Source: Eledone cirrhosa | Lineage: Eukaryota | DNA: 64,000 nucleotides | NCBI GenBank assembly: GCA_964016885.1 | Contig: OZ024743.1 | Coordinates: 300,204,001 to 300,268,000, forward strand | Direction of reading: 5' to 3' | Shown: in pieces, positions 20,267 through 48,985 of the stretch | How the letters are laid out: the number at the start of each line of letters is the position of its first letter | Position numbering within the stretch: position 1 is the first letter of the stretch | The notes under the pieces: model-generated | The model's database searches: none | Told to the model about the DNA's origin: nothing | The model's input: the letters and a program-made list of their open reading frames with translations, nothing else | Translations under genes and position numbers: made by a program

Positions 20267-21500
20267 GCATGAGGTGTTTCCAGATAATCTGGACAACGTG
20301 AGAATGTTTCAAATCTTGAATTTAGGCAATCGCTATAGCGGAATACCTTTATAATATTTATCCTTTCTTCAATATACATTCCACAAAACGGATTGCCCCT
20401 TATGTATAGCTTGGACTTAGCGAAAGCTTTCCATTGAATGGACTAGTCTATATGAGTCCTTCGGGGACAATACGTGGCTGGCGAGCTTCATGAATGGTCA
20501 TTTGTCATGGTACCTAAAGCTCAACTGATGGTTCAGGAGGCGTTCTTTAAATGACCCCGTCCGCCATACCCACATAGGATTTGACGGTCTGTGGCTGATA
20601 TGGTCGGTTGCAAGTGACCACAGCTTCATAAACTACAGCGGGTGTGTTGCATTGCTGTTGAAGGGGACAAGCTTCAGGCTTTCGGCAAGAGCTTCCTAGT
20701 GGGGTGCCGCTCTTTGGACTGTTGGTAATGTGGGCCTTCATATTCTTAGCGCAGGAGTACGATGACCCACATCACCAATAGTCGTAAGAGCGGCAGCCCA
20801 CCAAGATGTTCTTGCCGAAAGCCTGAAGCTTCCCCCTTCAACAGCAATGCAACATACCCGCTGTAGTTTATGAAGCTGTGGTCACTTCTAACCAACCAAA
20901 TCAACCATAGGAGGTCAAATCCTATGTGGGTATGGTGGATGGGCGATTTAAGGAGCGCTTCCTGAACCATCAGTCGGCCTTTAGGTACCTGGACAAACGA
21001 TCATCCACGAAACTCGAAAGCCACGTATGGACCCTCAAAGACTCAGGTATACACTAAGCCATCCATTCAATGGAAAGCTATCACTAAGTCTAAACCATAA
21101 GCAAGAGGCAATCCATCTTGGGGACTGTGTGTTGAAGAAAGGATAAATAATCTAAGGGTATGCATTAGCGATTGCCTAAATTCATGAAATGAAATATTCT
21201 CAGGTTGAACACCTGTCAGGAAACACCTCATGATTAACTGCAAATCTCCGGATTGAATAACAACAACATTCTAATTTTCTAATCAACTCGAACATTTTAT
21301 TCCGGAACCTCGCAGTTTTTTTCCTTACACCTTTCGCCCATTATACCGCCTGGGTGAAGTGAACATTTCTGCGCATACGCGTTCATACGGTTCTTCTTCC
21401 AGTTCCGTATAACCGTGACCAGTCCAAAACTGACGCTCCGCATAAGTTGAAACAATTGTTCTCGGTATGGTGAACTAACTGGTGTGTTACTACTTCTATA
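20267..21500. mobile_element. Head-to-head inverted pair of PLE GIY-YIG 3' ends
   Basis: 20267-20745 is a diverged reverse complement of 20760-21232. Encodes CRKPEACPLQQQCNTPAVVYEAVV..KSYVGMA. The right arm continues to a decayed HHR (CTGACGc..GAAACaattGTT, 21430-21464) and (TA)n. Confidence 0.85.
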
Positions 21501-47065: not shown

Positions 47066-47409
47066 ATATATATATATATGATATTTTTATTATGCGTATA
47101 TATATACAACATAACTACATTATGCATAGCGGCATTTGTAAAAGCACATAATGCTGAAACTGATATTATTAAACGTATTTCTATACTAACTGTTTTGTAA
47201 CACTTACGGACACATCTGATAACTGTGACGTGAACAGAAAGTTACAAAATTAAAATTATATGAATAAAATGACATGAAAAATAATAAGTAAAAATAATGG
47301 GTTCTTACATAGGCAAAAGACCAGTAATTTGGGGTGAGGGGGAAGTCAATTAAATAGCCCCCACTGTGTGACTGGTACTTTATGTTATCGATATATATAT
47401 ATATATATT

Positions 47410-48979
47410 ATTCATGTGCAACCTGCAGTATTCTTCTCCCCATTTTTTCACATATATTTACCTAAACTGCGATTCTGTTTTTTTTCTCTCTCTCTCTCTC
47501 TTACTGCTCCCTCGTTCTCTCTGTTTCTCCTACTTTCTTTCGCCCCCTCTGTCATGTCAGTTAACTCTTCCTCACACTTCCACTCACTCACTCACTGTTT
47601 CTCCTCTTCTCACTTCACCCCGTTCGCGACGAAAACATTTTCTCTCTTTCTCACATTTGAATTCGTTCCCGAAAGGTCTTTTTTCTAAACGCTCCTAGCT
47701 TATGCTAACAGAAAAACTATGAAGGTTGTTCCCTTCCTTCTACGGTTAGCTCTCCTCTTTGTTGTTATCTTGTCTCACTCGCTTTACGCGTTTTAATTGT
47801 CCTAATAACTTAATTTAGTTATTATTGCACCGACGTGAGGTATATGATTTTTAATGCAATGAAATATATATGATCGTCGGCAAATCACTGATGAGGGACT
47901 TATTTTATTACATGTTATCCATGTGTAACCTGCAGTATTCTTTTCCCCATTTTTTCACATATATTAACCTAAACTGCGATTCTGTTTTTTTTCTCTCTCT
48001 CTCTTACTGCTCCCTCGTTCTCTCCGTTTCTCCTACTTTCTTTCGCCCCCTCTGTCATGTCAGTTAACTCTTCCTCACACTTCCACTAACTCACTCACTG
48101 TTTCTCCTCTTCTCACTTCACCCCGTTCGCGACGAAAACATTTTCTCTCTTTCTCACATTTGAATTCGTTCCCGAAAGGTCTTTTTTCTTATCGCTCATA
48201 TATTCACCTGGCTTATGCTAACAGAATAACTATGAAGCTTGTTCCCTTCCTTCTACGGTTAGCTCTCCTCTTTGTTGTTATCTTGTCTCACTCGCTTTAC
48301 GCGTTTTAATTGTCCTAATAACTTAATTTAGTTATTATTGCACCGACGTGAGGTATATGATTTTTAATGCAATGAAATATCTATGATCGTCGGCAAATCA
48401 CTGATGAGGGACTTATTTTATTACATGTTATCCATGTGTAACCTGCAGTATTATTCTCCCCATTTTTTCACATATATTAACCTAAACTGCGATTCTGTTT
48501 TTTTCTCTCTCTCTCTCTTACTGCTCCCTCGTTCTCTCTGTTTCTCCTACTTTCTTTCGCCCCCTCTGTCATGTCAGTTAACTCTTCCTCACACTTACAC
48601 TCACTCACTCACTGTTTCTCCTCTTCTCACTTCACCCCGTTCGCGACGAAAACATTTTCTCTCTTTCTCACATTTGAATTCGTTCCCGAAAGGTCTTTTT
48701 TCTAAGCGCTCATATATTCACCTAGCTTATGCTAACAGAATAACTATGAAGCTTGTTCCCTTCCTTCTACGGTTAGCTCTCCTCTTTGTTGTTATCTTGT
48801 CTCACTGGCTTTACGCGTTTTAATTGTCCTAATAACTTAATTTAGTTATTATTGCACCGACGTGAGGTATATGATTTTTAATGCAATGAAATATCTATGA
48901 TCGTCGGCAAATCACTGATGAGGGACTTATTTTATTACATGTTATCCATGTGCAGCCTGCAGTATTCTTCTCCCCATTT

Positions 48980-48985
<6 letters not shown>
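47410..48985 (+). repeat. Tandem repeat, 3 units of ~513 bp
   Basis: catgtg(c/t)aacctgcagtatt recurs at ~47413, 47920, 48433 and 48947. Units are highly similar. Bounded by (TA)n. Confidence 0.97.

Follow-up and report, generated by a model that had tools for sequence, protein, structure and literature searches.

Each unit of a tandem repeat in Eledone cirrhosa carries the core letters of a hammerhead ribozyme. How are these letters connected to each other, and what kind of element do they serve? The repeat lies in the window, which here means the whole stretch of DNA that was analysed (64,000 nt), in a host genome of 3.0 Gb (1,796 contigs). The original prediction was a hammerhead of atypical permutation, occurring once per unit in a retrozyme-like element and representing a new architecture.

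The insertion and its tandem unit

The motifs of the predicted ribozyme are found, in the predicted order, in three tandem units spaced 513 and 514 nt apart (Table 1). These are part of an insertion with unit spacings of 507, 513, and 514 nt, whose 5' border (47408) is approximate and falls within a TA run. The 513-nt unit has no tRNA gene, no match to a simple Pol III A/B box pattern, and no CTGANGA on the minus strand. An Rfam search, in both E-value and gathering modes, gave no match to a hammerhead model here.

Contigs from three sequencing runs (kind unrecorded) agree with the DNA of the insertion. In these contigs loose ends at 47964 continue into (TA)n, and position 47868 is C at nearly all depth, the A of unit 1 being a rare variant. 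Units within one array share locus-specific variants. Units 2 and 3 also share two changes that are absent from unit 1, implying that local duplication may add units to an array.

Predicted fold of the ribozyme

In the predicted fold the blocks are arranged in the order of cleavage site (S), GAAA (G), and CUGAUGA (C), i.e., as the non-circular type-SGC permutation of the hammerhead. The core letters C3-U-G-A-N-G-A9 and G12-A-A14 are present in all three units (47888-94 and 47861-63 in unit 1). Stem III pairs 47838-43 with 47864-69 (A15.1 is 47864), and stem I pairs 47845-50 with 47882-87. Block S sits inside what was originally called loop II, and the predicted cut in unit 1 is 3' of H17.

Past A9 there is a single pair, 10.1-11.1, after which the chain forms the outer helix P0 with the 5' start of the motif. 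The strand preceding GAAA pairs with an upstream strand running directly into the interaction helix of stems I and II. P0, the side hairpin, stem II, and the core are predicted to converge in a four-helix junction that interrupts stem II beside 10.1/11.1, and the three blocks would be linked as a closed ring that is entered via the outer helix. Stem II at the core is one pair in all 86 aligned copies described below (G.U in 62 and A-U in 24; not G-C in the window), followed by the junction. The two junction pairs hold in 85/86 and 86/86 copies in the SGC register, compared with 61/86 and 86/86 in the register of the original prediction. The register is ambiguous in family C and in a G-C subfamily (see below), where 10.1 and 11.1 can pair in separate helices.

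No base is needed by more than one of the six helices. Four of them form in minimum free energy (MFE) folds of units 2 and 3, with modest z values (-1.5 to -2.1): P0, the side hairpin, CCGACG/CGUCGG, and, enclosed by the latter, 47838-43/47864-69. The fold demands that the interaction helix and stem III meet end to end. This geometry is called not obvious by the authors of type SGC as well (PMC10085705). Downstream of stem III, the 5-nt linker (47870-47874) looks like another stem I strand and is in part conserved in homologs. It may have been left by a block duplication, make a tertiary contact, or belong to an alternative conformer.

Table 1. Coordinates of the insertion and of the predicted ribozyme parts in the window (fold parts are those of unit 1)
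Feature	Position	Strand	Remarks
Whole insertion, ~3.1 tandem units, non-coding, 5'-truncated	47408..48984	+	(TA)n joined on both flanks
Ribozyme copy 1, type-SGC order, predicted four-helix junction	47799..47899	+	A47868 weakens stem III
Ribozyme copy 2	48312..48412	+	Every helix intact; predicted cut after A48357
Ribozyme copy 3	48826..48926	+	Every helix intact; predicted cut after A48871
Putative 513-nt monomer between two predicted cuts	47845..48357	+	Pyrimidine-rich; next monomer 514 nt
Internal copy of the family's fixed 3' end point, where copies join (TA)n	47940..47964	+	Terminal copy ends at 48984
Outer helix P0, 5' strand	47799..47802	+	Partner 47896-47899; chain entry/exit; in MFE fold
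Side hairpin A, arm of predicted four-helix junction	47803..47824	+	8 bp, 6-nt loop; 95.8% paired, double changes in 3/8 pairs
Stem II, upstream strand	47825..47829	+	Partner 47855-47859; 91.6% paired; T-A to C-G in 33/86
Stem I-II interaction helix, 5' strand	47830..47835	+	Partner 47875-47880; 96.1% paired, double changes in 3/6 pairs
Block S	47838..47850	+	Stem III strand 47838-43, U16.1 47843, H17 A47844, stem I strand 47845-50
4-nt linker, stem I to stem II	47851..47854	+	
Block G	47855..47869	+	Stem II strand 47855-59, U11.1 47860, G12-A13-A14 47861-63, stem III strand 47864-69
Block C	47882..47899	+	Stem I strand 47882-87, CUGAUGA 47888-94, G10.1 47895, P0 3' strand 47896-99

Conservation and covariation among genomic copies

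Alignment A1 includes 86 of the 93 distinct full-length copies; the other seven have large deletions or inversion junctions and were left out. Note that copies were selected by the core, the 3' strand of the outer helix, and the upstream GTCC, so that these are invariant by construction. P0, invariant in A1 through this selection, has another sequence at the same place in family C.

The SGC model has 36 pairs, and 95.1% of its 3096 cells are paired, compared with 28-45% in slid controls. Double changes are found in 14 of the 36 pairs: four in stem I, two in stem III, three in the interaction helix, two in stem II (one of them from a single sequence), and three in the hairpin. Stem I is 98.6% paired, with double changes in four of its six pairs, and stem III is 88.4% paired, with double changes in two of six. 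The number of double-change pairs is not above the shuffle of the tool (157/500). Three other measures exceed it (0/500), namely paired cells, double-change cells, and the covariation score, all being inflated by the relatedness of the copies. The helices are shown by the sequence and by this covariation, which comes from one genome and represents few independent events.

Two columns were not used in the selection of copies. U16.1 is T in 86/86, and H17 is A in 66, C in 19, U in one, and never G. In a FastTree tree, pairing survives 27 changes on internal branches and is broken by nine, while on tips it survives 17 and is broken by 41 (Fisher p 1.9e-5). Pairing kept on internal branches and broken on tips implies selection on source elements and decay of inserted copies. 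Five single copies (L009, L026, L028, L070, and L090) have deletions in the side hairpin or the interaction strand and are probably decayed insertions.

Much of what was originally proposed is retained in this fold. The outer helix, the side hairpin, the helix named stem II, and the 6-bp CCGACG/CGTCGG helix all hold across homologs. Covariation, which had been suggested as a check, is found in stem II, the hairpin, and the interaction helix; the originally proposed stem III is not upheld (see below). The SGC model in the 86 copies also supports a non-standard hammerhead topology in which an extra helix beside A9/10.1 is the point of entry.

A second family, a G-C subfamily, and searches for relatives

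The six-helix descriptor gives three matches in the 64-kb window, and these are the three ribozyme copies. It is passed by 2-3 of 3000 core-fixed shuffles of the window copies and by 0 of 3000 for family C. This second family was the one stretch outside the window's family obtained when the fetched loci were scanned for the core with stems I and III alone. Family C is tandem with a period of about 805 nt (381 exact matches; e.g., L213:1494-1610 (+), G000 C1:36393469). It has no sequence similarity to the window family beyond short low-complexity matches. Stem II, the interaction helix, the hairpin, and P0 are nonetheless at equivalent places and in the same order, with a GUC site and U10.1.C11.1. 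Family C is 96.5% paired and has no internal covariation, its copies being 98% identical.

Another variant is a subfamily of 895 units (L368-L375; e.g., G000 C1:14040041 (-)), in which 11.1 is C and CUGAUGA is followed by one G fewer. It can form the canonical G10.1-C11.1 pair, the other register being open as well. A metagenome search gave 75 pattern stretches, with the upstream S block in 0 of 56 scored matches and the full descriptor found 0 times in 189 kb. Among viral sequences ten pattern stretches were obtained, which by eye are chance-like matches.

Copy number and insertion structure

Counted by exact patterns, the window's group has 4,648 units and the wider family 16,077 (reversed-pattern control 5). 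The wider-family pattern does not include the 895-unit subfamily (control 0) or family C (381, control 0), and the genome-wide total by exact patterns, counted in units and not in insertions, is 17,353. Among related subfamilies, periods of 630 and 706 nt are found, with 69-84% identity over parts. Long arrays exist at L005/7/8 and L013.

The 3' ends were counted by eye in 27 distinct insertions, two of which run off the fetched stretch. Of the remaining 25, 23 stop at the same point joined to (TA)n, about 120 nt past the predicted cut. Family B 3' ends were not used since the query contained the junction. The 5' ends vary and some are inverted (also by eye). Plain (TA)n junctions at the 5' end follow TA microhomology and show no peak at the cut, where 2 of the 20 listed sites fall. 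None of the copies inspected reached a coding region. Copy number and end structure are in this way established. At L052:1060-1735, a family B copy has in its (TA)n tail an inserted family A copy, the 5' end of which is at the predicted cut site.

Inversion junctions were counted with three patterns of the same size, covering unequal shares of the subfamilies: 62 sites fall in the stretch with the predicted cut, 29 in the one immediately 3', and four in the one immediately 5'. Element-derived sequences account for 47 of the 50 listed sites in the cut-holding stretch. Of their 94 arms, 20 stop either at the cut or, with microhomology, 1-3 nt beyond it, and two extend farther. A TTTAAA palindrome located 4 nt inside the cut accounts for the largest peak (30/94 arms). 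In L052, L208, and L370, too, the predicted cut site has single clean junctions. The drop in junctions is suggestive of linear templates that would start at the predicted cut. Most long copies continue through this position, implying that their template was ligated or uncut.

Penelope-like elements in the genome

A Penelope-like element (PLE)-like family with RT- and GIY-YIG-like motifs is abundant in the genome (54,907 first-look candidates). Its ORF was not recognised in Pfam, and the PLE-like assignment is based on these motifs and on Atlas neighbours with RVT_1/GIY-YIG. Clade names for the local PLE-type families are ones that we presume. The 3' end of the family has a type I core in 30/30 copies and is joined to (TA)n in 29/30. 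In the very abundant PLE-like family of L266-L295, a type I hammerhead with U10.1.U11.1 and a palindromic stem III is found ~200 nt after the endonuclease ORF, and two alternative 3' ends are joined to (TA)n.

The SGC element and the PLE-like elements have the same (TA)n target and end layout. The 3' end of GIY-YIG families, pyrimidines followed by TTTTCA(TA)n, resembles that of the SGC element, a likeness of low complexity and a lead only. No SGC ribozyme is found in the 3' ends (within about 1.3 kb) of 30 PLE-like endonuclease and 30 GIY-YIG loci, nor is an autonomous element carrying it found among these 60 PLE-type loci. No sequence homology of the SGC element to the sampled PLE 3' ends or to a PLE terminal repeat was found. 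L196 and L197, 2.9 kb apart, were considered as terminal repeats of an autonomous element and rejected as separate insertions.

Other hammerhead-like motifs are also present. One of them, with GAAA and a UH site, is found at 47105-47190 (+) of the window and in the 3' UTR of L327, L337, L346, and L350. In this type, located in the 3' part of a family of GIY-YIG elements, the first core strand is changed, with UUGAUAA or UUGUAAA instead of CUGAUGA. A stretch similar to it lies 250 nt upstream of the insertion. Type I-like cores of other repeat families are in the window at 678 (+), 13729 (-), 46964 (+), 57966 (-), 58548 (-), and 59504 (-); in some of them 10.1-11.1 is A-U, stem II is branched or bulged, and stem III is minimal and palindromic. 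PLE-like element fragments, one of them inverted, are at 20290-21498 of the window (74-78% identity to L356). A short G(T/C)AACC(AC) motif is found downstream of the ribozyme in families A, C, and D and in L266-L295, which are unrelated (TA)n-targeting elements; it is weak and may be due to chance.

Comparison with known systems

Type SGC (HRIMA-1 and SGC variants) was described by Eckert et al. 2023 (PMC10085705), who report metatranscriptome contigs as its sources and none from the genome of a known organism. The published ribozymes are reported there to cleave and to need the interaction helix. Contrary to the original claim of a new architecture, the permutation itself is hence not new; the host, the copy number, and the four-helix junction are. 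In the literature outside subscription papers, "type SGC" is found only in the original paper, with no genomic or animal case of a non-circular permutation. For a four-way junction or extra helices in hammerheads, no tested precedent was found in the same literature.

The published ribozymes (PMC10085705) and those of the window have in common the S-G-C order, a short linker between stems I and II, a Watson-Crick helix between the ends of these stems, and all core letters. The linker is 4 nt here and typically 3 nt there. In the published descriptor (PMC10085705) the stem II strand directly follows CUGAnGA, with G10.1-C11.1. Here, on the other hand, the stem II partner and the interaction strand are upstream, reached via the four-helix junction with P0 and the hairpin, and 10.1-11.1 is G.U, A-U, G-C, or U.C. 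The published descriptor (CGAAA, CUGAUGAG, contiguous stem II; PMC10085705) would miss the copies of the window.

Animal non-LTR retrozymes, as presented by Cervera and de la Pena 2020 (PMC7229834) and Li et al. (bioRxiv 2026.07.22.740005), have tandem non-coding units of a few hundred bases with one hammerhead per unit, low GC, and co-occurring Penelope-like elements. All of this is common to the element here, and the prediction of a retrozyme-like tandem element agrees with its non-coding units, each with one hammerhead, dispersed in many copies. While those retrozymes are defined and searched by type I hammerheads (PMC7229834; bioRxiv 2026.07.22.740005), a non-circular permutation is found here. 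It is reported that 8/9 predicted retrozymes of Xenopus did not cleave (bioRxiv 2026.07.22.740005). The motif would work like a type-SGC hammerhead in a non-LTR retrozyme, departing from the first class by a block C that is broken after 10.1, where the chain goes over to P0, and from the second by its lack of type I topology.

Pseudoknotted type II hammerheads (Perreault et al. 2011, PMC3088659) also open the chain at stem II and have a stem I-II pseudoknot, and one with a 1-bp stem II plus pseudoknot is described there as cleaving fast. In the type II examples given in PMC3088659 the order is G-S-C with stems I and III as hairpins, whereas here S comes before G, stems I, II, and III cross one another, and a four-helix junction is present. 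With the (TA)n-targeting Penelope-like elements Neptune and Naiad, as described by Craig et al. (bioRxiv 2021.04.23.441226), the element has in common the (TA)n target, partial tandems, and inverted 5'-truncated copies. The SGC element is protein-free, and the PLE-type families sampled here have type I or type I-like cores.

Proposed mechanism and alternatives

The reading that we hold with good confidence is that of a tandem protein-free element with one SGC-order hammerhead per unit, predicted to cleave itself after A47844, A48357, and A48871, whose RNA likely forms a circle copied by Penelope-like enzymes. We infer cleavage from the published SGC ribozymes, which cleave at the analogous site, and from a 1-bp stem II being workable. 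Read-through transcripts would be cut into 513-nt monomers, whose two ends would stay in contact through four helices totalling about 21 bp and would be ligated, the enzyme being RtcB if they behave like the animal retrozymes that have been tested (PMC7229834). A Penelope-like RT/endonuclease would then nick (TA)n, prime about 120 nt past the cut at an AU-rich site of fixed position, and copy around the circle, producing 5'-truncated tandem insertions. Linear RNA that escaped ligation would account for copies in which the inverted junction coincides with the cut site.

Three alternatives concern the fold and its activity. The original one, with stems I and III as hairpins, a cut after A47870, and blocks in type II order, stem II being branched (possibly working as a dimer via its short stem III), is hardly credible. 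Its stem I does pair in 91.0% of cells, with a double change in one of four pairs, the A before this stem is nearly invariant (82/86), and a minimal palindromic stem III is found in other hammerheads of the same genome. In the column of its U16.1, however, T is found in 40/86 copies (A 35, C 6, G 5), so that the A-U pair of its stem III (GAAA-tata-TA) is kept in 46.5%, and this strand is non-palindromic in most subfamilies. The ATCA strand, assigned to a tgat/atca stem I, pairs at 98.6% with the upstream strand (four double changes), and family C has no counterpart of the second block of that fold. The predicted cut is accordingly moved to the position after A47844, the H17 supported by the two unselected columns. 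The caveat that GAAAtatcTA in units 2 and 3 weakens stem III is reversed, as the C completes the true stem III and A47868 of unit 1 is the damaged variant. The block orders that arise by circular permutation, CGS, GSC, and SCG (types I, II, and III), are not found, the GSC reading failing at U16.1. The claim that types I, II, and III do not apply is thus correct for the supported order, while the order that was claimed (GAAA, site, CUGAUGA) would be an ordinary type II. Loss of activity, the motif being a structural relic or an RT-recruitment fold that no longer cleaves, is quite improbable: the G.U at 10.1-11.1 would fit it, but the helix-preserving changes on internal branches, the non-G H17 in 86/86, the occurrence of one core in two unrelated families, and the fall in inversion junctions from one side of the predicted cut to the other speak against it. 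A switch, in which P0, the hairpin, the interaction helix, stem III, and perhaps the short stem I of the original fold form a resting state that keeps circles closed, with stems I and II forming for cleavage, is unlikely. The first four of these helices, and no others, make up the MFE fold of units 2 and 3, an alternative 4-bp partner of stem I is partly kept, and the ring geometry is tight; on the other side, the six helices do not compete for bases, and a tested SGC ribozyme is reported to have needed all four of its helices for cleavage (PMC10085705).

The fourth alternative bears on the life cycle, not on the fold. In it an active ribozyme makes no circle, tandems come from incompletely cut multimers or unequal crossing-over, and the cut sets only the 5' end. 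It is not the expected course but has an appreciable chance. Published SGC rates are slow (0.007-0.19 per min; PMC10085705), units 2 and 3 share their private changes and long arrays exist, and a similar amplification model is argued in bioRxiv 2026.07.22.740005. Against it, the sharing of locus-specific variants by units within an array and the abundant circles reported for tested animal retrozymes (PMC7229834) are in favour of a circle.

Implications

It is somewhat probable that the ring-closed SGC hammerhead with a four-helix junction is an active architecture that emerged or survived in an animal genome, driving at least two unrelated retrozyme families to more than 17,000 units, and that it would clamp its product ends for circularisation and mark a class of animal retrozymes invisible to searches for types I, II, and III and for published SGC. 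Ribozyme screens that assume an unbroken stem II have a blind spot. A predicted self-contained ribozyme whose cut ends stay paired may be of use in making circular RNA. With thousands of genomic copies and a traceable subfamily history, the origin and the spreading fitness of this permutation become testable.
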